DNA of 46,169 nucleotides from Candidatus Nealsonbacteria bacterium (lineage in GTDB: Bacteria > Patescibacteriota > Minisyncoccia > Minisyncoccales > MHMH01), in the NCBI GenBank assembly GCA_016181965.1, contig JACOYH010000008.1, positions 1 through 46,169 on the forward strand, written 5' to 3'. The notes beneath the pieces were generated by a model that saw only the letters and a program-made list of their open reading frames with translations, ran no database searches and was not told the origin of the DNA. The translations under genes were made by a program, and so were the position numbers. Shown here piece by piece: positions 2,584 to 21,591 of this stretch (positions are counted from its first letter, which is position 1; each line of letters starts with the position of its first letter).

Positions 2584-3775
2584 GTTTTTTTTGTTGTCTT
2601 AAGAATAAGGCCTTTTGATAATAATCCAATGTTTGGTTGACATGCCCGGTGAGATTAAAGTCATCCTGAATTCTTTGAAAACCGGCTTCCCCAAACGCCT
2701 TTGCTTTGCCGGGATTTTTTAGCAGGTCTAGAATTTTTTCCGCGAATAAATCGACATTCAGGGGGTTCACGATATAGCCGGTTTTCCCGTCTTCAACAAC
2801 CTCAGCACTGCCGCCAAAACAAGTGGCAACTACGGGCTTTTTGCAAGCCATCGCCTCAAGATTACTGCGAGGAAAGGCGTCGAGGCAAATTGAAGGCATT
2901 ATAACAATTTCAGAGGAATGATAGGCGGCTTTCAAATCCTCGCCTTGCAGCCAGCCGACGCTGCCGCTGTCTCCAACAACTAACAAAAAAGCCCGTGGCA
3001 CTTCTTCTTGCACCTTTTCCATAGCTCTTCTTGCCTGCTCACAGCCCTTGAGACCGCTGACTCGGCCGGCTAAAAGAACTATTTTTTTATCGAGGAGCCC
3101 GTATTTTCGCTTAAAATTCATCACTTTTTCGGGGCTTATTTGCCAATCATTAACATCCAACCCGGTATGGCTAACCTCAACATTATTGATGCCGTTCTGC
3201 CCAAGAGCATTTTTCAACGCGAAACTAACCGAAAATATCTGATCGACATTTTTTAAATATCTTTTGATGAAAAAATTCCTCCAGGGATTATATCTTTTTT
3301 GAACCTGCCCAAGATGATCCAGCCAATTTGTTCTTGCGTCAAATCGCTCCAAATACTTTCTGGTAGCCAATTTACCAAAACTGAAAAGCATAACATCGCG
3401 AGCTGTTAAAAACAAGGGTTTGTTAAATTCCTTGGCTATTTTCAGGCAATAATAGGAGAGATGTTTTTGAATATCCTGTGAATGAATTATATCGGGGTCT
3501 ATCTTTTTAATTATATCTCTAATCTTCCCGACCGTCTGGGGGTTATATAAAGCAATATAGGCATGCCATCGCAGATTATATTTGGCATAAATCCTGAATA
3601 TTTTTAGGCCCTCGTGAATAAAATTCTTTTCGCCTGACTTTTCCTGGCAAGTAGTAATAATAAAAACATCGTGCCCGGCATCTTTTAGCCCCCGAGCAAG
3701 ATAAAAACTGGAAAAGCCCGCCCCGCCGCAAGTCCCCTGCGGCGGAAAATTATCCGACAAAAATAGAATTTTCAT
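2576..3775 (-). CDS. GT4-family (GT-B fold) glycosyltransferase
   Basis: N-terminal MKILFLSDNFPPQGTCGGAG and C-terminal E-x7-E region EAMACKKPVVATCFGGSAEVVEDGKTGYIVNP. Confidence 0.85.
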   Translation of the reverse strand: MKILFLSDNFPPQGTCGGAGFSSFYLARGLKDAGHDVFIITTCQEKSGEKNFIHEGLKIFRIYAKYNLRWHAYIALYNPQTVGKIRDIIKKIDPDIIHSQDIQKHLSYYCLKIAKEFNKPLFLTARDVMLFSFGKLATRKYLERFDARTNWLDHLGQVQKRYNPWRNFFIKRYLKNVDQIFSVSFALKNALGQNGINNVEVSHTGLDVNDWQISPEKVMNFKRKYGLLDKKIVLLAGRVSGLKGCEQARRAMEKVQEEVPRAFLLVVGDSGSVGWLQGEDLKAAYHSSEIVIMPSICLDAFPRSNLEAMACKKPVVATCFGGSAEVVEDGKTGYIVNPLNVDLFAEKILDLLKNPGKAKAFGEAGFQRIQDDFNLTGHVNQTLDYYQKALFLRQQKKHD

Positions 3776-5178
3776 ATTCTTTTTACCATGCTATACCCCA
3801 AGCGCGCCCAATAGATGAGTTCTCCCGGCGTTTTAATCTTGATTAGTTGTTTAAGGATATAACTGGGACGCAGATAAAAACGCTTCATAAGGCCGGCTTG
3901 GAGCTTCAATAAATCATCTCCGTCAAAATATTGATAGCTCCATGAAGGTTTTCCGCCGTATAAAATAAAGTCGTTCCAGTTTTCTTGAATCAAATAATTG
4001 CCCTCTTTCATAATTCTGTTTAATTCAGTGCCGGGAAACGGCACGGTAATGAAAAAAGCCATAAAATCCGGGTTTAACTCCATGATTAAATTCATAGTGA
4101 GCTTGATATCTTCTGTTGTTTCCAACGGATGATTGCCCAGCATAAAAGTCGCATCAATGTATCGCAACCCTGTTTTGCGGCAAAGCGCAAAGGCCTCTTT
4201 AATTTGTTGAATTGTAGTTTGCTTATTAATCAGCTTCAGAATTCTCTCGCTGCCGGACTCTATGCCAAAAGAAACTTTCTCGCAACCGCTGTCAACGGCT
4301 TTCTTCAGAATATCTTCTCCAACCAAATTAACTCTCATATAGCAGTCCCAGGTGACTTTTTTAGATTTTAAATAATCGCAAATCGGGTAAAACAAGTCCT
4401 TCCTGAAGGCGAAAGTATCATCCATAATTGAAAAATGATTCGTCTGATGTTTTTTAATGCACTCGTCCATCTCCGCGATGATATTTTCTACGCTGCGATA
4501 TCTGACCCTTCTATTAAAATTCACATTAACGGCGCAAAAAATGCAATTAAAAGGGCAACCTCGGGCGGTTATAACTTCAGCTATGTTTTTGACGGTTCTG
4601 GAAAAACCGCGGCTGGCGTGGGTTTTTTTATATAACGCCATATCCAGGAGTTCTCTGTCGGGGAAAGGCAAGGAATCCAAATTTTCTATCAGGGGCCTGG
4701 CTCCCGTATCAACGAAGCCGGAACCATTGCGGAACAACAAGCCCCTAACCCCCGATAGGTCACCGTTACAAACCAATGCGTTATGCAGTTCCAAGAGAGT
4801 CAGCTCTCCCTCTCCTTTCGCGATAAAATCAAAGCAAGGAAACTCTTGCAGAGTTCTTTGCGGCAAAGCCGTAGCATGAACTCCGCCAACTATAATTTTT
4901 ATGTCCGGAAATCTCGCTTTAATGATTTTAGCCAAATCGTGTCCGGCTATTATATTAGAAGTCACACAGCTCATTCCTATTAAAATGGGGTTGCGCTCTT
5001 TAATAAAATTCCCCAAAGAATCGTCGGCAAGGTCTTGGACTTCGCAATCCAAGAGGTCCACTTTCACATTATTTTGCTTTAAATAAGCAGCTAAATAACC
5101 CAAGCTTATGGGATATTGGGTTGAGACAATCTCGCGCGGCACTAATTTGTTCCGTGGCCTGATAAGAATAACGCCCAT
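3772..5178 (-). CDS. B12-binding-domain radical SAM enzyme (class B), paralog 1
   Basis: N-terminal B12-domain layout (GMSCVTSNI..IIVGGVHAT) and CxxxCxxC in RGCPFNCIFCA. Start moved to the internal ATG (MGVILIRP) at 5178, just past the upstream stop at 5183. Confidence 0.85.
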   Translation of the reverse strand: MGVILIRPRNKLVPREIVSTQYPISLGYLAAYLKQNNVKVDLLDCEVQDLADDSLGNFIKERNPILIGMSCVTSNIIAGHDLAKIIKARFPDIKIIVGGVHATALPQRTLQEFPCFDFIAKGEGELTLLELHNALVCNGDLSGVRGLLFRNGSGFVDTGARPLIENLDSLPFPDRELLDMALYKKTHASRGFSRTVKNIAEVITARGCPFNCIFCAVNVNFNRRVRYRSVENIIAEMDECIKKHQTNHFSIMDDTFAFRKDLFYPICDYLKSKKVTWDCYMRVNLVGEDILKKAVDSGCEKVSFGIESGSERILKLINKQTTIQQIKEAFALCRKTGLRYIDATFMLGNHPLETTEDIKLTMNLIMELNPDFMAFFITVPFPGTELNRIMKEGNYLIQENWNDFILYGGKPSWSYQYFDGDDLLKLQAGLMKRFYLRPSYILKQLIKIKTPGELIYWARLGYSMVKRI

Positions 5179-5182
5179 TTTG

Positions 5183-7195
5183 TTAGTTGATTTTATATAT
5201 TCTCGCAAATTCGTTGGCTTCGGAATTATCAAATTTTAATTCCAAACGGCTATTTGCCAAACATTTTTGCTCTAAATCCCGGGGCCAATATTTATTCACG
5301 TATAAATAATGATAGCCCAAGGATTTTAAGGACTCGGTCTCGCAATTTTCCAGAATATTTTTATAAACAGATACTTGGGGAGCGAAGGCGTCATAGCGGC
5401 TTTCCATATTTTTTTGAATGTTATACCAGTAAAGAAAGTCCGGAGCAAATCTGCCCGTCCGAATGATGAAAGAAGAATTATGATAAGTCCCGGCATTAAT
5501 CTCTCCAAAAGTGAAAAAGATATCGGGAATTTCGGTTTCCTTTTGAATCCAGTTAAACGCTTCTTTTTCCACCGCGTTCAAGGCGGGCATTTGTCTTCCT
5601 AAAAATGGCCGTCCGAATTGCAAATCGGGAAAAACAGAAAATAATAAGAGGTAGATCATGCCTTGAAAGATAACCACTAAAACAAACAGTCCCAACAAAA
5701 TTTTCTTCCAATAAGACCTAAAATGTAAAATCAAAACAGCCAAAACAAAACCAAAAATTAAATTCCAGAAAAGCGCAGATAAATAATTTATGTCAACGAA
5801 ATCACCTTGCGATATGCCGGCGTTGACAATCAGGGGGATGGCGAAAGAGACGATAATAAGTAAAACCAAGAATGAACCGACCTGAGGATGCCGCGCGATT
5901 AGATACGCGGCCGCGGGGATAATAAAAAATATCAGCCAGCCCCAACCGAAAATAAAATCCTGGCCAAAAATCGGAACTGCAACGTTCTCATTTGTAACAT
6001 TAATTAGCGCTAAACCCTTGAAAAGATATTCCGGACTTATTGAAAAATTATGGCTGATGGGCGAGGCATGGCCAAAAAATACCTGCCTCGCAGTTTGGCT
6101 GACAATGCCGCCCTGTAAAAAAGCGAATAAAATACCTAAAAATAATATCAAAAGAGAGATTTTAAAATATACCCTGCCCAATTTTAGGTCCTTTTTAAGG
6201 AGAGCGTAAATCGCGGGAAAAGCGATAAAAACCGCCGCAAAGACGCTAAAGAAAAGTTCGGCAACTAACGCGAGAACAGCAAAAAGAACTGCGCAAAGCA
6301 GAGAAATCTTGAGCCAATGATTTTGCTCGTGGGCGGCTCTGAAATAAAGATGCATTATCGTTAAAGATAGGGCGAAACCCAGCAATACCCATGGAACTTC
6401 AAAATAGATTGTTATGATACTGCCGTGAATTTCCTTGCCAAATATCATATCGCTGACAAACCTAAAGGGCGCGTCAATCGGCTGAGCTAAAATAAATTTT
6501 CGGTATAGCGACGACAATCCGTCTATGCCATAAAGAAAGTTCAGATTACCGCCGAAAAGCATCACTAGGGCGCCAAGAAAGGCCTTAAAATTGCTTCGGC
6601 AAAAATTTCTTATCAATAAAAATCCCAATAGAAATATTGCGCCTATAAGGATGCCGTTCTGAAGGTCGTGGCCAAGCCAAACTGGCAGGCCGGTCACCCT
6701 GGCTATGGCTGCCAAAAATAAATTATAACCATAATGGTATTGGGAAGGAAATTCGGGCGCGAATACGGCCCTAACCGGAAAATTGCCCTCGGAAATAGTG
6801 GCCGCCAAGGGCAAGTGATCATAAAACATTTGGTCTGAAGATTCGCTGCGCAGAGCGATGACTCCGGCGACGGCGATGATTAAAAAAGTTGTGCCCAGCA
6901 AAATCATGCGCCATTTCTTCGTCATCTCCCATTTTGGCGCTTCTTTATTTTTGTTAACAACGCTCAAGACGCCGGCAGTCGCGGCCAAAACGGCCAAGAG
7001 CAAATAAAAATTAACGCGGATATCGATAAAATACGATGACAAATTCAGAAGGAAAATATAAGAGGAAAAACCGATGGTAATTGCCAAGGGAATTAGCATC
7101 TCAATGCTTTTTTCATTCATCAAAAACCTGACTGCCTGCCAGCCAAACGCAAACAATATGGCGAAAAAAATAATTAATAAAAATAGAGTCAGCAT
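5183..7195 (-). CDS. Large polytopic membrane protein with a C-terminal soluble domain, possibly a GT-C-like glycosyltransferase
   Basis: 670 aa with more than 12 hydrophobic segments and a roughly 140 aa polar C-terminus. Lies between a radical SAM gene and a methyltransferase in the glycan operon. No family motif recognised with certainty. Confidence 0.45.
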   Translation of the reverse strand: MLTLFLLIIFFAILFAFGWQAVRFLMNEKSIEMLIPLAITIGFSSYIFLLNLSSYFIDIRVNFYLLLAVLAATAGVLSVVNKNKEAPKWEMTKKWRMILLGTTFLIIAVAGVIALRSESSDQMFYDHLPLAATISEGNFPVRAVFAPEFPSQYHYGYNLFLAAIARVTGLPVWLGHDLQNGILIGAIFLLGFLLIRNFCRSNFKAFLGALVMLFGGNLNFLYGIDGLSSLYRKFILAQPIDAPFRFVSDMIFGKEIHGSIITIYFEVPWVLLGFALSLTIMHLYFRAAHEQNHWLKISLLCAVLFAVLALVAELFFSVFAAVFIAFPAIYALLKKDLKLGRVYFKISLLILFLGILFAFLQGGIVSQTARQVFFGHASPISHNFSISPEYLFKGLALINVTNENVAVPIFGQDFIFGWGWLIFFIIPAAAYLIARHPQVGSFLVLLIIVSFAIPLIVNAGISQGDFVDINYLSALFWNLIFGFVLAVLILHFRSYWKKILLGLFVLVVIFQGMIYLLLFSVFPDLQFGRPFLGRQMPALNAVEKEAFNWIQKETEIPDIFFTFGEINAGTYHNSSFIIRTGRFAPDFLYWYNIQKNMESRYDAFAPQVSVYKNILENCETESLKSLGYHYLYVNKYWPRDLEQKCLANSRLELKFDNSEANEFARIYKIN

Positions 7196-7199
7196 TTTG

Positions 7200-7955
7200 T
7201 TATTTTTTAGCTAAACAAAAAACACTTAAGCCGACCGGCATTTTTATATTCGCGGCTATCAATTTATTTTCGGCCTTAATCAGGTTAAGTAAAATTCCGT
7301 TAAAAAGGGGGTTGACCCGCCAGAGCTGGTCTTTTGCCTGACTTTTTTCCACAAATAATTTTTGCAAAATCCTAACTAATCCCACCGGGAAAAATAAAGG
7401 AAAATTCCAATAAGAGGATTTTTCCGGCTCAAAACCGCCGCCGCGCAATAATTCATTGAGTTGTTTTTTTGAATACCTTTTTTGATGCAAATTAATCTCG
7501 TCATGATTGCTCCAAAGAAACCCGAAGGCGGGCACAAAAACAATCAGTTTGCCGCCCTTTTTTAGGATTCTTCTCCATTCGGAAATTGTCTTCTCTTGTT
7601 CGGCAACATGCTCTAAAACATCAGAGGCCAGCACGATATCGAAATAATTATCCTCAAAACCAGTGTCTTTGGCGTCGGCCAGTTTGACGTTGGCGATTCT
7701 TTTCGTTCTGCAAACGTCAAGCGCGTCTTGGCTGATATCTATGCCGAAGAGATTGAGAAACCCCCTATTTTTTAATTCCTCGAGCAAAAGCCCGCCCGAA
7801 CACCCGACATCAAGTATTTTAGCGTCTTTGGGCATGGACTCCGTTAAACGCAAAATCATATCGCGTCTTCCGCGAAACCACCAATAGTTTTCTTCCAGAT
7901 TATGCATTTTTAATTCGTAGCTTTTCTTCATTTTATTGGAATAAAAACCAGACAA
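7200..7955 (-). CDS. Class I SAM-dependent methyltransferase
   Basis: Motif I ILDVGCSGGLLLEEL and post-I/II FDIVLASDVLEHV. Confidence 0.8.
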   Translation of the reverse strand: MSGFYSNKMKKSYELKMHNLEENYWWFRGRRDMILRLTESMPKDAKILDVGCSGGLLLEELKNRGFLNLFGIDISQDALDVCRTKRIANVKLADAKDTGFEDNYFDIVLASDVLEHVAEQEKTISEWRRILKKGGKLIVFVPAFGFLWSNHDEINLHQKRYSKKQLNELLRGGGFEPEKSSYWNFPLFFPVGLVRILQKLFVEKSQAKDQLWRVNPLFNGILLNLIKAENKLIAANIKMPVGLSVFCLAKK

Positions 7956-8622: not shown

Positions 8623-8626
8623 TGCG

Positions 8627-9280: not shown

Positions 9281-10716
9281 TGATGGAATGCGTTAACGAA
9301 TCTAATAATATTCTCGGTGGTCTTGGGATGCGTAGCCATTTTTTCTAAAACATCCAACGGGGTTGCGACAATGTGCGCGCCTGCTAAAAATGCGTCCACA
9401 ACATCTTTCATATTCTTGGAGCGAATGCCTCCCACAATTATCTCGGTATTCGTACTTTTTAGAAGTTGAGAACTGTTCTGAACCATCTTAAATGGGTCAA
9501 CTCCCATATCCTTAATGGCCGAAGAATTGATATAAAAATAACTCGCTCCGGCGTTGGCTGCTACGATTGCCTGGGCCTCATTCATACCGGAAGCGCACTC
9601 AACATTAATTTGATTTTCAGACAATTCCTTAATAATTCTTGCCTCTTCCCACCCCAACGGAATCCTTATGGTCAAATTGTTGTATCCAATCTGATTAATG
9701 ATATCTTTGGCCCGCTGAACAATATGTTCGGGGTCTTTTTCCGTCATCATAAGGCCTATGGGAATTTCCTGATGGTATTTTTTACACAAATCGGCCATTT
9801 CTTTTACAATATCAATATAGCCGTTGGCCATAATGTCCGGACTGGTAATAATGCCCGATAGAATATCTTTTTGAAGAGCTCTCTCCACTTCTTCGGGCGC
9901 ATTCGTTTCTAAAAATAGCTTAAGATTGTTGTTTTGCATAAGTTTTTTATTAATTATTTTGTGATTATTAAGTTGCGGCATTTTTGTAAACTCGCTCTCG
10001 ACCAAAAAAGCGTCATTGTCGTAGTCCCGGGTTGAAATTTCAATAACAACAGTATCTTCCAAACCTCCCGCCTGATGTATCAATCCCGGAGGAATATCTG
10101 CCGCCTGACCCGGATCGACGGCGAGATACTTGTCCTCCCCCTTGCCCGCCCTGAAACGCAATAAAAGTTTCCCGGAATGAACAAAATAGGTTTCTTTTTT
10201 TTGACAATGGAAATGAAAGCTGGAATTGTTGCCCTTTTTAAAGAATATCTTCTTGCCGGCATAAGCTCGGTTTACCATAGTCCAAAGAATGTCGGCCCAA
10301 TATTGGTCGCGGAAATTAAAGACCGTTGACTTCTTGAAAATTCCCTCTCTCAAATCATCGCTTGATGGAGGGCCGGAAAATAAGTAAAGGAAGGCATCTT
10401 CATTAGCTGTTATATCGATGTTTCCATTAATCTGATCGGCTGAAAATAGCAAGGTTTCTTGAGGCATCAACTCTTCTGATTTAAGAGAAACTTGGCCGCT
10501 CTCAATATAAACAGTCACTTCTCTGCCATGGAAATCTTGAGGATTAAGCAAGAAGACCGAACCCTTCTTAATATAAACCTGCGACAATCCGTACTGGTCG
10601 TTTTCGACGACCTTGCATAAATATCCCCACGGCGCTGCCGCTAATTGCGGAGTATAAACTTGCTGTTCTACTTCATTAATATCATAACCGTATTGATATA
10701 TTTTTGGTTTATTCAT
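9265..10716 (-). CDS. Bicupin domain fused to a transaldolase/fructose-6-P-aldolase-fold domain. The Schiff-base Lys position is Arg.
   Basis: Residues 1-250 hold two cupin barrels (SSFHFHCQKKETYFVHSGKL..IPPGLIHQ). Residues 265-483 match the TalC/FSA pattern LFLETN..GIITSPDI..NLTIRIPLG..VGGIRS. Codon 9664-9666 reads AGG (Arg) where the family has the catalytic Lys. Confidence 0.6.
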   Translation of the reverse strand: MNKPKIYQYGYDINEVEQQVYTPQLAAAPWGYLCKVVENDQYGLSQVYIKKGSVFLLNPQDFHGREVTVYIESGQVSLKSEELMPQETLLFSADQINGNIDITANEDAFLYLFSGPPSSDDLREGIFKKSTVFNFRDQYWADILWTMVNRAYAGKKIFFKKGNNSSFHFHCQKKETYFVHSGKLLLRFRAGKGEDKYLAVDPGQAADIPPGLIHQAGGLEDTVVIEISTRDYDNDAFLVESEFTKMPQLNNHKIINKKLMQNNNLKLFLETNAPEEVERALQKDILSGIITSPDIMANGYIDIVKEMADLCKKYHQEIPIGLMMTEKDPEHIVQRAKDIINQIGYNNLTIRIPLGWEEARIIKELSENQINVECASGMNEAQAIVAANAGASYFYINSSAIKDMGVDPFKMVQNSSQLLKSTNTEIIVGGIRSKNMKDVVDAFLAGAHIVATPLDVLEKMATHPKTTENIIRFVNAFHQWGKQ

Positions 10717-13890: not shown

Positions 13891-13894
13891 ACGC

Positions 13895-14068
13895 TTACCA
13901 TTGTTTAAGGGTATTTTTCGCCCTATCTTTAAATTTTTTATAGACCCCGTAAACCCCATCCTCAACCTCCGGTAGCATCCGTTTAATGGTACTTTCAGAA
14001 ATTTTCAGAAAGTCCCGGGCCTCGCTAGTGGTATATATTTGGTTTGGTTTTATTTCTTCTGGCGCCAT
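13895..14068 (-). CDS. Small (57 aa) helix-turn-helix-like protein, a possible local regulator
   Basis: Below the ORF-track size cut-off. Hand translation: MAPEEIKPNQIYTTSEARDFLKISESTIKRMLPEVEDGVYGVYKKFKDRAKNTLKQW. The segment TTSEARDFLKISESTIKRML resembles the excisionase/MerR-type HTH_17 pattern. Confidence 0.4.
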   Translation of the reverse strand: MAPEEIKPNQIYTTSEARDFLKISESTIKRMLPEVEDGVYGVYKKFKDRAKNTLKQW

Positions 14069-14074
14069 ATTTTA

Positions 14075-14103
14075 ATCATATGTTAGCCCAACAAGGGTGT
14101 CAA
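14075..14103 (-). promoter_or_regulatory. Sigma70-like promoter placed for a leaderless transcript of the small HTH ORF
   Basis: On the minus strand: TTGACA (14103-14098), a 17-nt spacer, then TATGAT (14080-14075). The ATG at 14068 lies only 6 nt after the -10 element. Confidence 0.4.
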
Positions 14104-14125
14104 TAGGTGTCAATAGGTGTCAAAA
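14096..14125. repeat. Three tandem 10-bp repeats, GGTGTCAATA GGTGTCAATA GGTGTCAAAA
   Basis: Read directly. The array abuts the stop codon of the epimerase gene (14126). Each unit carries TTGACA on the minus strand. Confidence 0.9.
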
Positions 14126-14914
14126 CTAAGGAAAGTGACGAGTTAAGTAATCCTCAATGCCCTGCTCTAAACTGTATTCGGCCTTAAATCCCCAGCTGAC
14201 ATCGGCCTTAGTATATTGCTGATAAGCTCCTTTATAGGGATTCTTTATGTAAATGGGTTTCAAATTAGTTCCCAGGGTTTTTCTAACAGCTGCCAACACG
14301 TCGTCATAAGTTCTTGGTTTGCCTGTCCCCACATCATAGATGCCGTTTTTCAATTTAATGGCTTGCATAAAGGCCCTGACCGCGTCTTTGACATAAATAT
14401 GGTCTCTTTTGGATTTTCTTTCAGAACCAAAGGCCTTGGGTCTCTGGCCTTTCTGGATTTGCAGAGCCCACTGCGCAATCACGCTGGCCATATTTCCTTT
14501 TTGAATTTCATTTGGCCCGAAAACATTAAACGGCCGCAAACCGACTATGGGCATTTTGTCAAAAAAATATTCGGCTATTTCGTCGCCTGTTATTTTGGAT
14601 ACGGCATAAGCGGTTTTTGTATATTTGCCGTACACGGCTGCGCTTGAAGCATAAATGAGTTTTGATTTTCCCTTTAAGGCAAATTCTATAATATTAAGGA
14701 AACAAAATAAATTGTTTTTCAGGGTCACTATCGGTTCGTCTCGGGTGGAACTAATGGCGGCCAAGTGGAAAATCACATCAAAATCATTCTTAATTTTAAT
14801 GGGTTTCCGCAGATCGCGATTATAAACAATCACCTTGTTTTTGCGATTTTTCTTTAATTCCTTTGCCAGATTTGACCCGATAAATCCCTTGGTTCCGGTT
14901 ATAAAATACTTCAT
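14126..14914 (-). CDS. hldD: ADP-L-glycero-D-manno-heptose 6-epimerase-like extended SDR (short form, 262 aa)
   Basis: GTKGFIGSNL Rossmann motif and YAVSK (YxxxK). LIYASSAAVYG, RPFNVFGPNEIQKGNMASVIAQ, RDHIYVKDAV and YQQYTKADVS parallel the HldD motifs [43 protein letters not shown] and YQAFTQADLT recalled from E. coli HldD. Confidence 0.65.
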   Translation of the reverse strand: MKYFITGTKGFIGSNLAKELKKNRKNKVIVYNRDLRKPIKIKNDFDVIFHLAAISSTRDEPIVTLKNNLFCFLNIIEFALKGKSKLIYASSAAVYGKYTKTAYAVSKITGDEIAEYFFDKMPIVGLRPFNVFGPNEIQKGNMASVIAQWALQIQKGQRPKAFGSERKSKRDHIYVKDAVRAFMQAIKLKNGIYDVGTGKPRTYDDVLAAVRKTLGTNLKPIYIKNPYKGAYQQYTKADVSWGFKAEYSLEQGIEDYLTRHFP

Positions 14915-14917
14915 AAG

Positions 14918-16276
14918 TTATATATAAATTTTTTTGTTTAATCGCTGTTTCCAGAAAGAATAAATTATTTCAAAAAAACCGTGGGGAGGTAAATTGACAA
15001 GAATCCTTGTTAGGGGCAATAAAAACGGGAAAGAAACCGTAATGGTAAACAACTTTTGCAGATTCTTGATTTTGTCTCGGTCGGGGATCTTCAGGGGACT
15101 TTCTCCAAAATAAGAGGTCTCCAAAATTCTGTTAAAATCTCCGTCATAGAGACCCATTTTGACAACCTCGTCTCCCAATTCGGTCCGAGGATATGGCTGG
15201 TAAATGGTTGGCCAAGCCATATCTGCCTTACAAACAATATTTAGCCCTAGGGTTTCAAAGTCGTCCTTAAGTGAGCCGTGAGGAATACCTAATATATTGT
15301 AAGTTCTTAAATACAAACCGGCTTTTTTGATATGTCTGGCGGCGCTGATGATTTGTTCTTTGGTGATATTCTTTTTAAGAATTTTATTGCGTAAATCATC
15401 ATTAGCCGTTTCAATCGCCATAGAAACTCCGGTGCAACCCGCTTCTCTCAATAGCCCGGCGAATCTTTCATTAATCGCATCGGCCCTCTCGTTGCAGTGA
15501 AATGGTGTGTTGACCAATTTTTTGTATTTTGAAGAAAACTCTTCCAGCCAATCCATGCGAAACCCGAGATTATCGTCTTGAAAGTAAAACATTTTTACTG
15601 GGTATTGATTTTTTACTTCCAGTATTTCTTCAATTAAATTATTAACGTTTCTGACGCGAAGGTAAACCCCTCCGTGCTGATTTTGATAAATTTCTTTTAA
15701 ATGATGGTTATAGCAAAAAGTGCAATTGTAGGGACAACCCCGAGAGCCGGTGACCCCCCTAATTGGATTATGATAGGACTTGGGATATTTATCGTAAACC
15801 AGTCCTCGGTCGGGGAAAACTATTGAATTAATATCGGCCAATGGCCTGACTGGATTCTTAAAAATCTTTCCGTTTTTTTTAATCCACAAGTTTGGAATAT
15901 CGGTAAAATCTTGTCTGTCTCGGCACCGGTCGGCCAAATCAACAATAGCTCCTTCGCCCTCGCCGACGCAGATGGCGTCAACGCCGTCTTCATTAATGAA
16001 CTCGCTGAAAAAAGTGGCGTGGGGACCGCCAAAAATAGAAATGAAATTGAATTTTTGCTTCAATTCCCGATTAAGATCGCGGAAATATACATGGGCTCCG
16101 GTAATGATACTGTAACCGACGATATCCGGCATAAAACTTTTCATCGTTCCCTCAATATCTTCCGTGTCGGCCTTAACAATATCGGTGTGGTGGCCTGCTT
16201 GCTTCAAAGCCGCCGACAGATACATAATTCCAAGCGGTTCAATAATGAAGTCCTTAGCAACGAATAAAATGCGCAT
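14918..16276 (-). CDS. B12-binding-domain radical SAM enzyme, paralog 2
   Basis: MRILFVAKDF..GYSIITGA..IFGGPHATF B12-domain layout. CxxxCxxC in RGCPYNCTFC. Confidence 0.85.
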   Translation of the reverse strand: MRILFVAKDFIIEPLGIMYLSAALKQAGHHTDIVKADTEDIEGTMKSFMPDIVGYSIITGAHVYFRDLNRELKQKFNFISIFGGPHATFFSEFINEDGVDAICVGEGEGAIVDLADRCRDRQDFTDIPNLWIKKNGKIFKNPVRPLADINSIVFPDRGLVYDKYPKSYHNPIRGVTGSRGCPYNCTFCYNHHLKEIYQNQHGGVYLRVRNVNNLIEEILEVKNQYPVKMFYFQDDNLGFRMDWLEEFSSKYKKLVNTPFHCNERADAINERFAGLLREAGCTGVSMAIETANDDLRNKILKKNITKEQIISAARHIKKAGLYLRTYNILGIPHGSLKDDFETLGLNIVCKADMAWPTIYQPYPRTELGDEVVKMGLYDGDFNRILETSYFGESPLKIPDRDKIKNLQKLFTITVSFPFLLPLTRILVNLPPHGFFEIIYSFWKQRLNKKIYI

Positions 16277-17445
16277 TAGGGTGATATCTGCTGATTATCG
16301 CTATTTTTATTAAGCAAAGAAACTGCGGCGCTGAATACATCTTCGGGATTGATTTGCTTAAGACATTGCAAATGTCCCCCTTCCTTGCAGAAAGAAGCGA
16401 ATGATGGACTAAATAAGCAGGGACAGCAATAGAGTTTTTTCTGAACTATCGCGCAACGCTCATGTATGGGGCTTTGTTCATAAATATCAACAGGACCGGG
16501 GATATCAACCGAGAGAATATTCAAGGCATCGGCAATATAAAGCGGCCCCGTATCACCGCTAATGAATAATTTCAATTCTTCCATTAAAGCGGGCAGTTCG
16601 CGCAAATTAAAATAGCCGGCAGTATCAATACTGTTATTTTGCATCATTTCTTGAATTTTTCCAATAACGACTCTGTCGCCAAGCGAGCCTATAAAAATTA
16701 TCTTGGCTTCCAATCTTTCAATTAATAAATCGGCGAGGGCGGCGAATTTTGCCGGCTCCCATTCTTTGAATTTAACGCCGGCGGCAACACAAACGCCAAT
16801 CAGTAAATCATTGGGGTTCAAATTTTTATCTTTAAGAAAATCAAACGCCTTTTTTCTCTCATCGGGCTGGATAAAAATTTCTTTTCTCTCCGAATAATTC
16901 TCAATTCCTATAAATTTCAATAAAGCCAAGTAATGTTTAATTCTTGATGTGTGGCTTTTATATTCCAGACGATAATTGTTAAAAATAGAAAGCAGGCCGA
17001 TTGTTTCGCCAAAGTATCTATGGGTAGTTATCGCTCGATTCTTAATTAAAGACCAAAGTCCCAACATATTGATGAAATAGTCGGGAAAAAGGCCGAATAC
17101 CCAATCGTAATGGTCGCGTCTTAATTTTTTAATGAGCCGCAATCCTCCTTTAATGCCGCTATAATCGTTAATCACTATAATTTCGTCAATTCTCGGATTA
17201 TTCTTCAAAACATCTTTGGCCTGAGCCAAAACCATAGCCGTCAAATAACAATTCGGAAAATTTTTTTTAATTTCGCGGAAAACCGGGGTCGTACAAACCA
17301 AATCCCCTATTTTTGCGGTTTGGATAACTAAAATTTTAGGCCTTTCATTTTGTTTTCTAAAAAAAATAAGGAAATAAAAGAGAGGCGCCAGGAGATAGGT
17401 AGCAATTAGCCAGAAAAAACTATTAAAATAAGCTTGAACTTTCAT
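16276..17445 (-). CDS. GT9-family glycosyltransferase (heptosyltransferase-like) with an N-terminal TM anchor
   Basis: KILVIQTAKIGDLVCTTPVFREIKKNFP (GT9 N-terminal signature), KEWEPAKFAALADLL, and GDTGPLYIADAL in place of the usual DSGPMHLAAA. Confidence 0.8.
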   Translation of the reverse strand: MKVQAYFNSFFWLIATYLLAPLFYFLIFFRKQNERPKILVIQTAKIGDLVCTTPVFREIKKNFPNCYLTAMVLAQAKDVLKNNPRIDEIIVINDYSGIKGGLRLIKKLRRDHYDWVFGLFPDYFINMLGLWSLIKNRAITTHRYFGETIGLLSIFNNYRLEYKSHTSRIKHYLALLKFIGIENYSERKEIFIQPDERKKAFDFLKDKNLNPNDLLIGVCVAAGVKFKEWEPAKFAALADLLIERLEAKIIFIGSLGDRVVIGKIQEMMQNNSIDTAGYFNLRELPALMEELKLFISGDTGPLYIADALNILSVDIPGPVDIYEQSPIHERCAIVQKKLYCCPCLFSPSFASFCKEGGHLQCLKQINPEDVFSAAVSLLNKNSDNQQISP

Positions 17446-17448
17446 AAA

Positions 17449-18867
17449 TTATTGTACCTTCGTAAATAGCCATCTTTTAATCGTTTGGCGATGTTGACGG
17501 GCGGTCTTTAAAAAATGCAGAGGGTGGCGGAAAAAATAGGCAAACTTTGCTTGTCTAACATACCTGAAAACCTGCTCGTAAGTCAAACCGGGCTGTTCAA
17601 AAATTGGCATGCAGGGCGAGGCCGACAGCGGCGGATAGGACCTGTCCATTTTATACGGCTTTGCCCAAGAAAAATCTTTGGGCAAATTCCCGGAATTTTT
17701 GGCGAGCATTTCCATTTCGGTGCCGGGATAAATTACGGAAATCCCCTGCGTCGTGCCCTCTACGCCCAATTCGTAAAAAAGATAGCGGCTTAGAAAAACG
17801 GTCTTTTTAATATCCTCGTATGTTTCGCCCGGCAGCCCGTGCATGAAAAACGCTTTCATGCCTATGCCCGCTTTTTTTATGACCTTAGCGGCTCTTATCG
17901 CCTGCTCAACGGTAATGCCTTTTCTGATATTTTTTAAAATTTTATCGCTGCCCGACTCAATACCCAAATCAATAAATTCGCAACCAGCTTTTTTCATGGC
18001 TGCCGCCACTTCCTCGTCGATGGTATTGGCCCGGGCTTCGCATTCCCAAACGAAATTAAGCTTTCGCCTGATAATTTCGTCGCAAATCGCCAAAACCCTT
18101 TTTTTGTCCATCGTAAAAACATCGTCAAAAAATCTGATGCCCTCAAAAAAGGGATAGGTCTTGAAAAGGTATTCTATTTCGTCGAGGACATTAAGGGGCG
18201 ACCTGTGACGAATGCTGTGGCCCCATTGCTCGGAAGTGGAACAATAAACGCAGTAATAGGGGCAACCCCGACTGGTCATAATATTAGTGCATCTTTTTTT
18301 GGAAAGAAAAGTTCTTTGAGTATATTTTTCTATTGGCAGTAAATCGCGAGCCGGCAGGGGCAGGGCGTCTAAATCCTGAATGGCTGATTCTCTGGGATTG
18401 TGGACGATATTTCCCTTATTGTCCCTAAACGAAATTCCCTTAACATCGAAAAAATCTCTGCCTTGCTCCATGGCTCTGACTAAATTTAAAAAAGAAATTT
18501 CCCCCTCCCCCTTAACGACCGCGTCTATCTCCGCAAGATTTTCCAAAGTGTCTTGAGCCGTGAGAGTCGGGTGGGGACCGCCAACCACTATTGAAATATT
18601 CGGCATTTCTTTTTTAATGCTCCTTATTAAATCAAAGGCGCTAAATCGAATTTGCGTGCCAAAAGATATGCCGATAAGATCGGGCGGATTCTTTTTCAGC
18701 AAACCAATAATATCTTCGTTAGAATAATTATTGGCCATGCTCTCAATTAGAGAAACATCGTTGAAGCCGTTGCTTCTTAAAACGGCCGCCAGCCAAGCAA
18801 TGCCCAAGGGAGGCATATTGGGCTTTGTTTGGAAGGTGTTCGGCGGAAAAATTAAAGTGATTCTCAT
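17449..18867 (-). CDS. B12-binding-domain radical SAM enzyme, paralog 3
   Basis: MRITLIFPPN..GISFGTQ..VVGGPHPT. CxxxCxxC in RGCPYYCVYC. Start moved to the ATG at 18867. The 33 upstream codons of the track ORF run into the promoter and palindrome. Confidence 0.85.
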   Translation of the reverse strand: MRITLIFPPNTFQTKPNMPPLGIAWLAAVLRSNGFNDVSLIESMANNYSNEDIIGLLKKNPPDLIGISFGTQIRFSAFDLIRSIKKEMPNISIVVGGPHPTLTAQDTLENLAEIDAVVKGEGEISFLNLVRAMEQGRDFFDVKGISFRDNKGNIVHNPRESAIQDLDALPLPARDLLPIEKYTQRTFLSKKRCTNIMTSRGCPYYCVYCSTSEQWGHSIRHRSPLNVLDEIEYLFKTYPFFEGIRFFDDVFTMDKKRVLAICDEIIRRKLNFVWECEARANTIDEEVAAAMKKAGCEFIDLGIESGSDKILKNIRKGITVEQAIRAAKVIKKAGIGMKAFFMHGLPGETYEDIKKTVFLSRYLFYELGVEGTTQGISVIYPGTEMEMLAKNSGNLPKDFSWAKPYKMDRSYPPLSASPCMPIFEQPGLTYEQVFRYVRQAKFAYFFRHPLHFLKTARQHRQTIKRWLFTKVQ

Positions 18868-18914
18868 GTAAATAACAACACCGCTAAATAGGTTAGCGTT
18901 AGCGAATTGAATAG

Positions 18915-18943
18915 ATTCTAACAAAATTTCGGCCGTCAGACAA
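18915..18943 (-). promoter_or_regulatory. Candidate sigma70 promoter for the 18867-to-1 minus-strand operon
   Basis: On the minus strand: TTGTCT (18943-18938), a 17-nt spacer, then TAGAAT (18920-18915). Confidence 0.4.
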
Positions 18944-18963
18944 GCAGACCGAGTTTCAACTAA

Positions 18964-18991
18964 CACTACTATACTATGTAGTATAGTAGTG
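18964..18991. promoter_or_regulatory. Perfect inverted repeat, 13-bp arms and a 2-nt spacer
   Basis: CACTACTATACTA tg TAGTATAGTAGTG, read directly. Lies 20 nt upstream of the candidate -35 in a divergent intergenic region. Confidence 0.8.
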
Positions 18992-19082
18992 CTGGTGTAT
19001 TAGACATCGAATATTTAACACGCACTGACACACTTTCCGGCGTAAGCGGAAATTTGTGTCACCGCAGCCGTCCCCATTGTCC

Positions 19083-19110
19083 TTGACTTTTTAATATTAT
19101 TATGTATACT
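19083..19110 (+). promoter_or_regulatory. Sigma70-like promoter for the GC-rich orphan gene
   Basis: TTGACT (19083-19088), a 16-nt spacer, then TATACT (19105-19110). Shine-Dalgarno AAGGAG at 19135-19140, 7 nt before the ATG at 19148. Confidence 0.55.
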
Positions 19111-19147
19111 ACTTATCAGCACCCGATTAAACTTAAGGAGTTGTGGC

Positions 19148-20083
19148 ATGAAAAACGTGGAGCTTACCAAGGGCAGGTGCGCGATCTGTCGTGCACCCAT
19201 CGACAAGAAGTGGGGCGGAGATGACCCCTCTCTCGGCACCGTGTGCCGTAACTGTCCCAATGAAGAGGTGTTCAGACCCGAGAACGTAGAGATCGTCGTG
19301 CAGAAGTGCCTGCGCTTTGATCCGCTACTCGGCGTTTACGAGTACTATTTCGATTGGCGAGGCTCGCGGATCATGGTGAATGGCAAGGTCGGAACAATCA
19401 ACTGCCCGCAGGCAGATGGCGATTTTGTGCGCTTTGAGGACGAAGAGACGCCAGGCCTCGGAACCTTCATCTGTGGTGTCGGCTATTGGGATCTCCTGCG
19501 CATTTATAGGGCGCAGGACGGTAAAACCGAACCGCCCGCGCTCAACTTCGAGCCATACACGCCAACCAAGGTGAAACTTCTTGATGGCCCGATTTTACTC
19601 ATCAAGGTGGACAGGCATGAGAATGGGAACATCCGTAGCGTCCAGATCGGCAGCAAGTCAATCTACGGCGGACCCGTACCTACCGCCACGGAATTACCCA
19701 ATCTCCCGACCCTTCACGCATTCGCCAATCTCTACGTGAGGCACAAGTTCGAGCTCAAGCCAAATTACTGCTCGGAGGGCGGTTTTCTTGGCAACTGTTT
19801 CGAAGTTCGCAACGCGGGGACATTCACCGGCGGCGTAGGTATTTATATCCGGGAAGGGTGGCCGGGGAGCGCCCAAGAGGCGGTTTCGACATGGATGGAG
19901 GTAATGAGGACCCTGCTACGGTACGATTGGCGAAAGTTCACCCTTAAGACCGTCGAGGACATATGGGGGCACTACTGCCGCATACAGGATGTGCTCCTCA
20001 ACATTATGTCGGCAGACGAACTCGCCGAGGCGCTGTCATACTGCCGCAACAACAAGATGACGCATTGCGGCAGTAGTTACTGA
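19148..20083 (+). CDS. Hypothetical protein with an N-terminal CxxC..CxxC zinc ribbon. Compositional outlier on the opposite strand.
   Basis: 311 aa ORF with a strong Shine-Dalgarno site, promoter and terminator. CAICRAPIDKKWGGDDPSLGTVCRNC. No family recognised. Visibly higher GC than both flanks. Confidence 0.7.
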   Translation: MKNVELTKGRCAICRAPIDKKWGGDDPSLGTVCRNCPNEEVFRPENVEIVVQKCLRFDPLLGVYEYYFDWRGSRIMVNGKVGTINCPQADGDFVRFEDEETPGLGTFICGVGYWDLLRIYRAQDGKTEPPALNFEPYTPTKVKLLDGPILLIKVDRHENGNIRSVQIGSKSIYGGPVPTATELPNLPTLHAFANLYVRHKFELKPNYCSEGGFLGNCFEVRNAGTFTGGVGIYIREGWPGSAQEAVSTWMEVMRTLLRYDWRKFTLKTVEDIWGHYCRIQDVLLNIMSADELAEALSYCRNNKMTHCGSSY

Positions 20084-20100
20084 TTTCTGAATCAACAACC

Positions 20101-20138
20101 AAAAGTGGCAACCGAAAGGAAGCCACTTTTTCTTTTTC
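20101..20138 (+). terminator. Rho-independent terminator
   Basis: AAAAGTGGC, a 12-nt loop, GCCACTTTT, then TCTTTTTC. A-rich on the other side, so possibly bidirectional. Confidence 0.6.
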
Positions 20139-20147
20139 GTTGACATT

Positions 20148-20170
20148 TGTGCAACACTCGGTGTCGCACA
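20148..20170 (-). terminator. Imperfect hairpin just downstream of the radical SAM paralog 4 stop
   Basis: TGTGCAACAC tcg GTGTCGCACA, with 9 of 10 pairs. Confidence 0.3.
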
Positions 20171-20181
20171 AGTAATGATTC

Positions 20182-21591
20182 TCATACAGACAATATGGCC
20201 ATAGCTCCCTGCCAGTATCTTTTGATGTCTTCAAATCCGCGGATAGAGAGGACTTTGGGCGCAATATAGCTCAAGCGAAAATGAAATTTCATATATGCGT
20301 ATTTCTTTGTTTTCTGTAATTCTTCCATACTTTTGTATCCCTCGGGCAGAAAGGTGGCAAAATATCCGGTCAGCTTATCGTATGACTCATCAACCATCCT
20401 GCCCCACTTGCCTTCTTTAATTTCTTTATAGAGCGCGGTCTCGGGATAGGGAGTCAGGATATTAAACTTTACATAGTCAGGATTCAGCTTACAAAGCGTC
20501 TTGAGCATTTTTCGGACTTTTTCCGGCGTTTCCTTGGGCAACCCCAAAATGAAATTCGCCCTGCTCTCAATTCCCGCTTCTTTGGTCCACGAAAGGGCTT
20601 GCGTAATCTGTTCAATAGTTATCCTTTTATTGACTGCCTCTAATATTTCCGGGTCCAAACTTTCTATGCCAAAAAAAATGCACCGGCAACCGGCCTTCTT
20701 CATCTTTTCTAACAGGTCTCGGGCGATCGTATTGACTCTGCACTCGCACGACCATGTCAGGTCGATTTTTTCCCGGAGAATCGTCTCGCAGAATTCCTCA
20801 ATCCATTCCCTATTTAAACCCCAAACATCATCCCAAAAATTTATCTCTTTTATGCCGTAATTATCTATGAGATGCTTTATTTCTTTGATAACGCTTTGAA
20901 CCGATCTTATGCGGTATTTCCTTGTCCAAATTGCCTCGGTATTGCAAAAAGTGCAATTGTACGGACAGCCGCGGCTGACCATCATCGTGGTCATTGGCGT
21001 TCGCTTATACTGATTTGGCGAAGGCCTATATGATAAAAGCGGCACCAAATGCCTGGCTGGAAAAGGCAGAGAATCCAATTCCCGTATCAATTCCCTGCGG
21101 GGGGTTATCACGGCTTCGCCGTTTTCCTTAAAGCCGATTCCTTTGACCGCCCTTAAATCAGTTTTTGTTTTGAGGCCATTCAGCAACTCCACCAGCGAAA
21201 GCTCGCCCTCGCCAATAACAATATAATCAACGCAATTATTGGATAAAACCTCAAGTGGCCTGATGGTAACGTGGGGCCCGCCAAAAATAATCGGGATATG
21301 CAATTTTTCTTTTATGCCTTGAGCCAGCTCTAAAGTGTGTCGGTAGTTGGAAGTGTTGCAGTATAGGCCCGCAACATCGGGACTCTGGCCGGCGCATCGT
21401 TCAATTGTTTCCTCCATCGTCCAATTGTGAAGCTGGGTGTCCAATATCTTCGGCTTAAAGCCATTGTTCTCCAGCGCCGCTCCTAAATATAAAAGTCCGA
21501 GCGGAGGCAAACAGGAACCGATTTTTTCAATCCCTCGGCCATACCTTTCCTTCATGGAAAATGGAGGCATAATGAGCAATATATTTTCCAT
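20182..21591 (-). CDS. B12-binding-domain radical SAM enzyme, paralog 4
   Basis: MENILLIMPPF..GLYCNTSN..IFGGPHVT. CxxxCxxC in RGCPYNCTFC. Confidence 0.85.
   Translation of the reverse strand: MENILLIMPPFSMKERYGRGIEKIGSCLPPLGLLYLGAALENNGFKPKILDTQLHNWTMEETIERCAGQSPDVAGLYCNTSNYRHTLELAQGIKEKLHIPIIFGGPHVTIRPLEVLSNNCVDYIVIGEGELSLVELLNGLKTKTDLRAVKGIGFKENGEAVITPRRELIRELDSLPFPARHLVPLLSYRPSPNQYKRTPMTTMMVSRGCPYNCTFCNTEAIWTRKYRIRSVQSVIKEIKHLIDNYGIKEINFWDDVWGLNREWIEEFCETILREKIDLTWSCECRVNTIARDLLEKMKKAGCRCIFFGIESLDPEILEAVNKRITIEQITQALSWTKEAGIESRANFILGLPKETPEKVRKMLKTLCKLNPDYVKFNILTPYPETALYKEIKEGKWGRMVDESYDKLTGYFATFLPEGYKSMEELQKTKKYAYMKFHFRLSYIAPKVLSIRGFEDIKRYWQGAMAILSV

Follow-up and report, generated by a model that had tools for sequence, protein, structure and literature searches.

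Radical SAM genes at the locus

We analyzed a 46,169-nucleotide (nt) stretch of contig JACOYH010000008.1 from a Candidatus Nealsonbacteria bacterium (here called the window), in which five genes for radical S-adenosylmethionine (SAM) enzymes lie among genes with glycan- and heptose-related domains. The genes form a tightly packed run on the minus strand, from about 1.7 to 26.5 kb of the window, and the junctions between operon genes range from a 4-nt overlap up to a 4-nt gap. The coordinates of all features are listed in Table 1, and genes are named below by their lower coordinate. DNA of the window recurs in several groundwater metagenomes from two studies and is therefore not an assembly artefact. 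Related loci used for comparison carry L numbers.

Table 1. Features of the window, with the evidence or remarks for each (GT, glycosyltransferase; TAL, transaldolase; SDR, short-chain dehydrogenase/reductase; HTH, helix-turn-helix; ORF, open reading frame; AF2, AlphaFold2; aa, amino acids)
Positions	Strand	Feature	Evidence or remark
1678-2583	-	FkbM-like methyltransferase (weak match)	PF05050, 25.6 bits (cut-off 22.7)
2576-3775	-	GT4 glycosyltransferase	Pfam; orthologues of 60-61% identity in L086 and L087
3772-5178	-	Class B (B12-domain) radical SAM, GGVH variant	Follows the gene of the 670-aa membrane protein at a distance of 4 nt; overlaps the GT4 start
5183-7195	-	670-aa polytopic membrane protein, possibly GT-C (DUF2298-like)	PF10060, 20.3 bits (cut-off 27.8)
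7200-7955	-	Class I SAM methyltransferase	PF08241, 83.9 bits
7933-8622	-	GT2, 229 aa, without transmembrane helix	
8627-9280	-	HAD phosphatase, beta-PGM type, candidate heptose bisphosphate phosphatase	PF13419, 120 bits
9265-10716	-	Fusion of bicupin and TAL-like domain, candidate GmhA replacement	Like cupin-type phosphosugar isomerases
10709-11665	-	PfkB kinase, HldE domain I-like	TIGR02198, 167.6 bits (cut-off 345)
11687-12751	-	Fusion of TAL/FSA domain and HldE-II-like heptose-1-P adenylyltransferase	TIGR02199, 143 bits (cut-off 181.5)
12748-13890	-	Radical SAM with SPASM/twitch-like Cys-rich tail	4-nt overlap with the start of the TAL-adenylyltransferase gene
13895-14068	-	Small HTH_17-like ORF, 57 aa, shortened	Head of the heptose sub-operon
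14126-14914	-	HldD-like SDR/epimerase, short, 262 aa	TIGR02197, 196 bits (cut-off 274.6)
14918-16276	-	Class B radical SAM, orthogroup W14918, hydrophobic C-terminus conserved	Pfam, synteny, AF2 model
16276-17445	-	GT9 (heptosyltransferase family), N-terminal transmembrane helix	PF01075, 72.8 bits
17449-18867	-	Class B radical SAM	Lies directly upstream of GT9
19148-20083	+	Inserted ORF, 311 aa, without Pfam match	Separates radical SAM genes 20182 and 17449
20182-21591	-	Class B radical SAM, orthogroup W20182	Begins 2 nt past the stop of the GT-C gene
21594-23327	-	577-aa membrane glycosyltransferase, predicted GT-C fold	AF2 and Foldseek
23329-24276	-	GT2, two C-terminal transmembrane helices, Dpm1/GtrB/ArnC-like	Orthologues of 52-66% in L002, L003 and L005
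24264-25226	-	LPG_synthase_TM (MprF flippase-domain family) membrane protein	PF03706, 125.9 bits
25223-26467	-	414-aa membrane protein, possibly PMT_2-like GT-C	PMT_2, E 0.25
39674-45306	-	Second part of the glycan locus	SMR/ArnE-like protein, GT2, FkbM methyltransferase, GDP-fucose-synthase-like SDR, GDP-mannose 4,6-dehydratase, polysaccharide deacetylase

Class B radical SAM enzymes, which carry a B12-binding domain, are a very large and mostly uncharacterized group. A sequence-only reading of the window had assigned genes 3772, 14918, 17449 and 20182 to this class, and the domain search agreed. All four ORFs contain the B12-binding domain (PF02310; 72 to 88 bits, Pfam cut-off 32) and, C-terminal to it, the Radical_SAM domain (PF04055; 68 to 100 bits, cut-off 29.5). 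For two genes the ORFs used in the Pfam search were longer (3772-5232 and 17449-18966, with TTG/GTG starts) than the genes with ATG starts at 5178 and 18867. These ATG starts, which the sequence-only reading had used, fit the homologue lengths better; the orthologue of 17449 in L005 has 472 aa. Pairwise identity among the four proteins is only 28 to 37%, and they are therefore old paralogues rather than recent duplicates.

Cofactor motifs were read from an alignment of the paralogues. The motif RGCP(F/Y)xCxxC, which provides the CX3CX2C pattern of the [4Fe-4S] cluster, is invariant in all four, as had been claimed. Structures of OxsB, TsrM and TokK define three motifs for base-off cobalamin binding: a Gly-Gly pair after beta-4, a Gly-Glu pair at the start of alpha-5 and a GxSxL-type motif in the beta3-alpha3 loop (PMC9204698). 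The Gly-Gly pair is invariant here; GGPH, reported earlier for each paralogue, was found in three of them, and 3772 has GGVH. The Gly-Glu pair (GEGE) is also invariant, and the loop motif reads GxSxxT in three paralogues and GLYCNT in 20182. Thus the B12-binding residues, whose absence would have spoken against the assignment, are present on alignment, and their positions agree with the secondary structure of an AF2 model of 14918.

This model, built on 40 homologues, has a mean predicted local distance difference test (pLDDT) score of 93. The fold comparison covered 14918 among the four paralogues. In a Foldseek search of the PDB, its best 17 matches were all of class B type (probability 1.0; query-normalized template modelling [TM] score about 0.7, range 0.61 to 0.71). 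MgmA (9CCB) ranked first and AprD4 second, and TsrM, OxsB, CysS and TokK also matched, all at 14 to 20% identity. The nearest solved structures by sequence were AprD4, TokK, 9CCB, TsrM, CysS and OxsB; AprD4 was the best PDB match of 20182 (E 9e-27) as well as of the 14918 profile (E 2e-27). The AprD4 matches span only the radical SAM core (residues 148-385 or 168-413), and the N-terminal domains align with the cobalamin binders TokK, TsrM, CysS and OxsB.

None of the four paralogues reached the NCBIfam cut-off for BchE, HpnJ, HpnR, PhpK, ApyD, AprD4, TsrM, MgmA/MJ0865, BzaD, ArsL, KedN5 or the ladderane radical SAM family. The best scores, those for BchE and HpnJ, were 100 to 223 bits, compared with cut-offs of 481 for BchE and 577.6 for HpnJ and of 360 to 775 across class B families; the other models gave lower values. 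HpnJ scored 84 to 223 bits and AprD4 59 to 118 bits (cut-off 500). Scores for HpnR and rSAM_ladder_B12 were 62 to 149 bits, and those for ApyD and other models of methylases acting on peptides synthesized ribosomally and then modified post-translationally (RiPPs) were 81 to 186 bits, all far below the respective cut-offs. Since domains, motifs and predicted fold agree, the four genes are assigned to class B on these grounds, and since no NCBIfam cut-off was reached, to uncharacterized subfamilies of it.

The fifth gene, 12748, had been described as a SPASM-type radical SAM gene. Its radical SAM domain stood up (PF04055, 88 bits, plus Fer4_12), whereas the SPASM profile PF13186 stayed below threshold (17.3 bits versus a cut-off of 21.5; E 0.006), with its full length aligned. 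The tail has six Cys residues (CX17CC...CX2CX9C) versus the canonical seven, and the twitch model NF033640 gave 70 bits versus a cut-off of 170; we therefore call the predicted enzyme SPASM-like. Among solved structures, BlsE (a cytosylglucuronate decarboxylase), PqqE and MoaA are closest to it in sequence. Given the position of the gene within the heptose sub-operon, its product may plausibly act on a sugar or nucleotide sugar.

The start of the SPASM-like gene is taken as ATG 13890, because the conserved HTH_17 ORF fills 13895-14068 and overlaps the TTG-extended reading. This ORF is 48% identical, with a 26-residue internal deletion, to the HTH_17 gene L086:7255-7500, a gene that heads the heptose gene string in L086 and L087. 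In the window, the ORF is preceded by a promoter-like site at 14103-14075, the best sigma-70-like match on the minus strand (11 of 12 positions).

Heptose genes and membrane partners

The radical SAM genes were said to be interleaved with glycosyltransferases and heptose-activation genes. The interleaving is there: the run contains GT4, GT2 and GT9 genes, the HldE-I-like kinase, the TAL fusion with an HldE-II-like domain and the HldD-like SDR. The label "heptose-activation" needs qualifying, since these are homologues below the equivalog cut-offs, and no SIS-type GmhA gene is present in the window. By contrast with this gap, related loci L085 to L087 carry SIS_2 genes as well as fusions with a PNK3P-type HAD domain.

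The predicted bicupin protein 9265 is a candidate non-orthologous replacement of GmhA. In its second barrel it resembles archaeal cupin phosphoglucose isomerases (match with E about 5e-5), and in its sequence the metal motifs HxHxxxxE and PxGxxH are intact. In its TAL-like domain, the Schiff-base Lys is replaced by Arg; the catalytic Lys is kept in the TAL domain of 11687, and the same TAL-adenylyltransferase fusion occurs in the protein P0361. An exhaustive search of 1.84 billion representatives found the cupin-TAL fusion in one other protein cluster only. Further cupin fusions join a bicupin to a HAD phosphatase (P0360) and a cupin to PfkB and a CTP_transf adenylyltransferase domain (P0499). 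Because of these fusions to PfkB plus adenylyltransferase and to HAD, we tie the bicupin to the heptose pathway as a candidate for the missing isomerase.

The HldD-like SDR, with 262 aa, is short relative to the NCBIfam heptose-epimerase model of 316 positions, which it matches in two stretches. L086 and L087 keep the short form (264 to 269 aa, 61 to 62% identity) beside GT9.

Three large membrane proteins are encoded in the run, and the presence of GT-C membrane enzymes had been proposed. The predicted fold upheld this for the 577-aa protein 21594. This protein has no Pfam match above threshold (PMT_2 reaches E 0.015). Its AF2 model has a pLDDT of 92.8, and the Foldseek matches at E 0.001 or lower belong without exception to GT-C enzymes (PglB, AftA, STT3, DPY19 and ArnT; probability 1.0, TM score 0.45 to 0.57). 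E60 in the first external loop is invariant in the family, and D63 nearly so. Homologues are named from Patescibacteria only (Nealson-, Zambryski-, Vogel- and Portnoybacteria). The modelled structure thus shows a GT-C fold in a newly recognized, Patescibacteria-specific family.

For 5183 and 25223, a GT-C identity is suggested by subthreshold DUF2298 and PMT_2 matches only. A weak PMT_2 flag is likewise attached to the 25223 homologues in L003 and L085. Homologues of the 670-aa protein (50 to 51% identity) occur in L002 and L086, and the copy in L086 is followed by a class B radical SAM gene. With hhalign, no relation of the 670-aa or the 414-aa protein to the 577-aa family was detected, and no homology was found among the three proteins.

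Finally, three conventional methyltransferases had been described as interleaved with the radical SAM genes. One, at 7200-7955, lies in the range given (3772-21591), and the FkbM-like genes at 1678-2583 and 40715-41578 lie outside it.

Conserved neighbourhoods in related loci

Orthologues of 14918 (58 to 67% identity) are present in three Patescibacteria contigs, L085, L086 and L087; a 58% orthologue comes from a Nealsonbacteria metagenome-assembled genome (MAG). In all three contigs the orthologue overlaps by 4 nt the end of a string composed of a SIS gene (GmhA-type), a PfkB gene (HldE-I-type) and an adenylyltransferase-HAD fusion (HldE-II plus GmhB-type). The same contigs encode orthologues of the window GT9 (56 to 62% identity), and in L086 and L087 orthologues of the short SDR (61 to 62%) and of the GT4 (60 to 61%) lie nearby. 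In a Spirochaete MAG (L091), a GT9 gene is followed directly by a 44% homologue of 14918 (L091:1587-3959), and the pairing therefore extends beyond Patescibacteria. L092, a locus with six class B radical SAM genes plus GT9, encodes a 786-aa fusion of a W14918-type radical SAM enzyme (a 45% homologue) and a class I SAM methyltransferase (L092:10001-12361). A 50-aa ORF beside the fusion gene (L092:8258-8410) seems to be a remnant of a radical SAM core, not a precursor peptide.

Orthologues of 20182 (56 to 82% identity) were found in L002 to L005, each with the gene of a large membrane protein as its neighbour. L002, L003 and L005 keep the order GT2, 577-aa protein (51 to 53% orthologues), radical SAM, and the GT2 has C-terminal transmembrane helices. 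In the Aenigmarchaeota locus L004, the order is LPG_synthase_TM, radical SAM, methyltransferase and PMT_2 GT-C. Further 20182 orthologues occur in Pacebacteria and in DPANN archaea (Aenigm-, Woese- and Nanoarchaeota). Taken with the groundwater source, the lineages of these homologues and of those of 14918 and the 577-aa protein make a Parcubacteria-group bacterium of the candidate phyla radiation the most likely origin of the window. For 15 of the 29 closest orthologues, the longest contig is equal in size to that of a member of the 577-aa family, which speaks indirectly for adjacency; six are on contigs of at most 8.2 kb. A profile search of contigs with the 20182 alignment gave one close relative (L005) among the matches listed, and the 79 others were general class B proteins of at most 41% identity.

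Gene 17449 has one orthologue of 76% identity, in L005, where it directly follows the orthologue of 20182. The same position before GT9 is taken in L086 and L087 by a class B radical SAM gene that is only 34 to 39% identical. The order of 5183 and 3772, membrane protein and then radical SAM, is mirrored in L086. Class I methyltransferase genes lie at most two genes from class B radical SAM genes in L003, L004, L005, L085, L086 and L089.

Two of the four paralogues thus keep the same neighbours in relatives with proteins of 50 to 80% identity. Because of this, the clustering of the radical SAM genes with glycan and heptose genes is conserved and not due to chance; lack of such synteny in relatives had been named as a finding that would undermine the association. 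The sets themselves differ between loci. When 41 class B proteins from 11 loci, with two to seven per candidate phyla radiation (CPR) or DPANN locus, were sorted at a minimum of 45% identity, 24 groups resulted. Turnover of the paralogue sets is therefore quick, and quick turnover is typical of tailoring genes in variable surface-polysaccharide loci.

Gene turnover is also visible around the radical SAM genes of the window. The plus-strand ORF 19148, opposite in strand to the operon, has a Cys-rich, zinc-ribbon-like N-terminal segment and a GC content of 0.48 versus about 0.41 in the operon around it. It is missing between the 20182 and 17449 orthologues, which are adjacent in L005, and a 100% identical copy is present in the independent Logan contig L001. 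The first 1.7 kb of the window (1-1677) has no long ORF and holds decayed fragments of a GT2 gene (about 1663-1409, minus strand) and an SDR gene (about 322-107).

Further along the window, the second part of the glycan locus is contiguous with the 25223 homologues in L003 and L085. Relative to these two loci, the window has an insertion of about 13 kb (26500-39600) that splits the glycan locus. The insertion encodes a PD-(D/E)XK nuclease, a DoxX protein, a TnsA-like endonuclease, a rhodanese and a type III-like restriction-modification pair (ResIII helicase, 28640-30739; N6/N4 methylase, 30742-32754). It further contains a DUF4145 protein, an OLD-family AAA_15 plus TOPRIM nuclease (33596-35419), two ORFs with no assignment, a dual-specificity phosphatase fused to TspO (37210-38235) and an MBL-fold protein (38702-39556) that matches the anti-Pycsar Apyc1 model with 97.8 bits. 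Another GT2 gene begins on the plus strand at about 45664 and continues past the window end at 46169. A scan of the window detected no tRNAs.

Proposed role and alternative explanations

The five radical SAM enzymes probably perform uncharacterized radical chemistry on envelope sugars. More specifically, we see an even chance that this is an envelope-glycan locus in which the four class B enzymes tailor the glycan, with the SPASM-like enzyme as a fifth, and in which C-methylation is the chemistry. Tailoring of the carbon skeleton of a sugar, as first suggested for this locus, is supported by the genomic context, and its chemistry is extrapolated from characterized class B enzymes. The suggested targets, a sugar (possibly heptose) or its lipid carrier, also fit well: W14918 goes with nucleotide-heptose genes and GT9, and W20182 with the GT-C and Dpm1-like GT2 genes.

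In the pathway that we propose, the four class B enzymes would be cytoplasmic or membrane-peripheral. The TAL, cupin isomerase, PfkB kinase, HAD phosphatase and adenylyltransferase activities would together give a nucleotide-heptose, on which the HldD-like SDR would act next. The membrane-anchored GT9 and the GT4 would then transfer heptose, and the W14918-type enzyme may modify either the activated heptose or the first heptosylated membrane intermediate. A membrane-proximal step fits because, by hydropathy, the GT9 has an N-terminal transmembrane helix and the W14918 group a conserved hydrophobic C-terminus. In parallel, Dpm1-like GT2 enzymes would load sugars onto polyprenyl phosphate. The W20182-type enzyme, and by its position probably 3772, would modify lipid-linked sugars at the cytoplasmic face before flipping. 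LPG_synthase_TM and the SMR-like (flippase-like) proteins may move the sugars outward, where GT-C enzymes would transfer them outside the membrane. GT-C enzymes use polyprenyl-phosphate-linked donors, and the link of W20182 to the module of GT-C and Dpm1-like GT2 implies a polyprenyl-phosphate sugar as its likely substrate.

In this chemistry, as in that of GenK, GenD1 and Fom3, cobalamin would mediate the transfer of methyl groups to unactivated carbons of sugars; C-methylated or chain-extended sugars would result, and the neighbouring class I methyltransferases would work alongside. We favour C-methylation because it is the commonest activity of cobalamin-binding members, because the cobalamin motifs are intact, and because class I methyltransferases are recurrent neighbours and in one case fused. 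GenK and GenD1 are class B C-methyltransferases that act on unactivated sp3 carbons of sugars (PMC4340712, PMC5819394). Together with Fom3, they can be likened to the window proteins by architecture and description, with the same combination of B12 domain and radical SAM domain and with class I methyltransferases alongside. Fom3 acts on a CMP-linked, and thus nucleotide-linked, substrate. These enzymes belong to actinomycete secondary-metabolite pathways (gentamicin and fosfomycin), in contrast to the envelope-glycan operon proposed here, with its two to seven divergent paralogues per locus and its links to heptose and GT-C genes. By comparison, then, the window enzymes resemble the class B sugar-tailoring enzymes GenK, GenD1, Fom3 and AprD4, yet they fall in none of the characterized families against which they were scored.

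The membrane module can be compared with GtrA/GtrB/GtrC, CsbB/GtcA/YfhO and ArnC/ArnE-F/ArnT, which combine a Dpm1-like GT2, a small or flippase-type membrane protein and a GT-C enzyme. In the Arn pathway, ArnD modifies the lipid-linked sugar before flipping, the same logic as we propose for W20182-type tailoring. In contrast to these systems, the 577-aa GT-C protein of the window has no Pfam model and is restricted to Patescibacteria, and we know of no three-component lipid-linked glycosylation system with a radical SAM tailoring step. The heptose genes parallel the canonical pathway to ADP-L-glycero-beta-D-manno-heptose, with homologues of the kinase, adenylyltransferase, epimerase and GT9 (WaaC/WaaF), to which the relatives add a SIS-type GmhA and a GmhB-like HAD. 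The window departs from that pathway in its scores below cut-offs, the lack of GmhA, the cupin isomerase-like domain, the two TAL fusions and the transmembrane anchor of GT9. Patescibacteria are not known to make lipopolysaccharide.

Several observations weigh against the proposed C-methylation of envelope sugars. The kinase, adenylyltransferase and epimerase homologues all score under the NCBIfam equivalog cut-offs, and the lack of any class B family-level match leaves no function to be transferred by homology. For the paralogues 3772 and 17449, the sampled loci yielded few orthologues or none; with 3772, nothing exceeded 40% identity in 11 related loci. A 46% homologue of 14918 lies among chaperone genes without glycan genes (L090), and a member of the 577-aa GT-C family occurs without a radical SAM gene nearby (L088). 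Neither cobalamin uptake or salvage genes nor a cobalamin riboswitch were found in the 46-kb window, and as far as we know B12 synthesis is generally beyond CPR bacteria. The nearest solved relative by sequence, AprD4, is a cobalamin-independent sugar diol dehydratase, and the sequence features considered here do not separate methylases from non-methylating class B enzymes.

The last two points lead to the strongest alternative, which we regard as a real though lesser possibility: the enzymes may act on the same glycan intermediates by radical 1,2-diol dehydration followed by reduction by an SDR, by ring contraction or carbocycle formation, or by oxidation or epimerization. Deoxygenation of the AprD4/AprD3 type would suit the rank of AprD4, best PDB sequence match for 20182 and the 14918 profile and second by fold, and the SDR gene located directly after 14918. 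AprD4 (apramycin; PDB 6FD2) likewise acts on a sugar and has an SDR partner, AprD3. It differs from the window enzymes in that the match to it is confined to the radical SAM core and excludes the N-terminal domain, which here aligns with TokK, TsrM, CysS and OxsB; the Gly-Gly and Gly-Glu cobalamin motifs are invariant in the window paralogues, and AprD4 is cobalamin-independent. A rearrangement of the HpnJ or OxsB type is suggested by HpnJ as a top NCBIfam match. HpnJ is associated with the modification of a lipid-linked amino sugar (glucosamine), which it probably remodels. As in the window, HpnJ is a class B-type radical SAM enzyme beside a GT2 (HpnI); unlike there, no hopanoid genes are present here and the host is a CPR bacterium. 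The AprD4 and HpnJ scores are far below their cut-offs, and the recurrent pairing with methyltransferases and the fusion in L092 fit methylation instead. For the SPASM-like enzyme, the best solved relative, BlsE, is a sugar decarboxylase, and this too would agree with chemistry other than methylation.

Lipid and protein substrates are less likely than sugar, because no lipid-synthesis genes, no precursor peptides and no family-level matches were found. A lipid substrate, which we consider unlikely, could be the polyprenyl carrier or scavenged membrane lipids, methylated or joined by C-C coupling as by HpnP, HpnR, GDGT-MAS or the ladderane-type radical SAM enzyme. The hydrophobic C-terminus conserved in the W14918 group would suit such a role, as would the position of radical SAM genes next to membrane proteins and an MprF-type flippase domain and the matches to the lipid-acting HpnR and rSAM_ladder_B12 models. 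However, those matches are far under the cut-offs, W14918 is most tightly linked to soluble nucleotide-sugar enzymes, and neither the window nor the related loci contain genes for lipid or isoprenoid synthesis.

A protein or peptide substrate, either a glycoprotein acceptor or a RiPP modified in the way that MgmA or Mmp10 act on protein side chains, appears still more improbable. The top structural neighbour of 14918 is MgmA, the glutamine C-methylase of methyl-coenzyme M reductase, and the best fold matches of the GT-C protein include protein-glycosylating oligosaccharyltransferases; the ApyD and other RiPP methylase models also match. Those RiPP-family scores are all far under the cut-offs, however, and intergenic scans for small ORFs revealed no precursor-like ORF beside the radical SAM genes, where the only small ORF is the HTH_17 regulator. 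Peptidase, transporter and RiPP recognition element-type genes are absent as well. MgmA, TsrM, TokK, CysS and OxsB share the fold and the cobalamin motif set with the window enzymes, from which we infer cobalamin use, but identity is only 14 to 20%, and their substrates (protein, tryptophan, carbapenem and nucleoside) are met in gene contexts unrelated to that of the window.

That the radical SAM genes are unrelated passengers or decaying, nonfunctional genes of a variable island is very hard to credit: the inserted ORF 19148-20083, the decayed GT2 and SDR fragments at 1-1677, the 13-kb defence insertion and the radical SAM fragment in L092 do attest to turnover or decay, but the five ORFs are intact with invariant catalytic motifs, the packing looks translationally coupled, and orthologues of 56 to 82% identity keep their neighbours across bacteria and DPANN archaea.

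Taking C-methylation of envelope sugars as the favoured role, we tentatively extend it to a general proposal, to which we give clearly less credence: Patescibacteria and some DPANN archaea may use fast-diverging arrays of cobalamin-dependent radical SAM enzymes to make C-methylated or chain-extended higher-carbon sugars, for example octose-like sugars from nucleotide-heptose or polyprenyl-phosphate sugars. The known sugar substrates of class B enzymes come from antibiotic pathways, and to our knowledge almost nothing is known of the envelope glycans of CPR bacteria. In the full-text literature, which leaves many subscription papers outside its coverage, we found no published account of radical SAM arrays in an envelope-glycan locus, nor of a link of such enzymes to heptose and GT9 genes or to GT-C enzymes in Patescibacteria. 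The link to the nucleotide-heptose, GT9 and GT-C/Dpm1 modules suggests substrates of a new class and, possibly, sugars of new structure. The orthogroups W14918, with its heptose genes, and W20182, with its new GT-C family, are concrete targets for biochemistry.

If the general proposal is true, class B radical SAM chemistry would be used here for the first time in the primary synthesis of cell-envelope glycans. That a genome of some 1 Mb should hold four to seven B12-type enzymes in one locus implies strong selection on surface chemistry and dependence on external cobalamin. The quickly changing paralogue sets would then amount to a strain-specific surface glycan code, relevant to host attachment or phage evasion, and for their envelope these symbionts, with their tiny genomes, would rely on B12 that they scavenge from neighbours.

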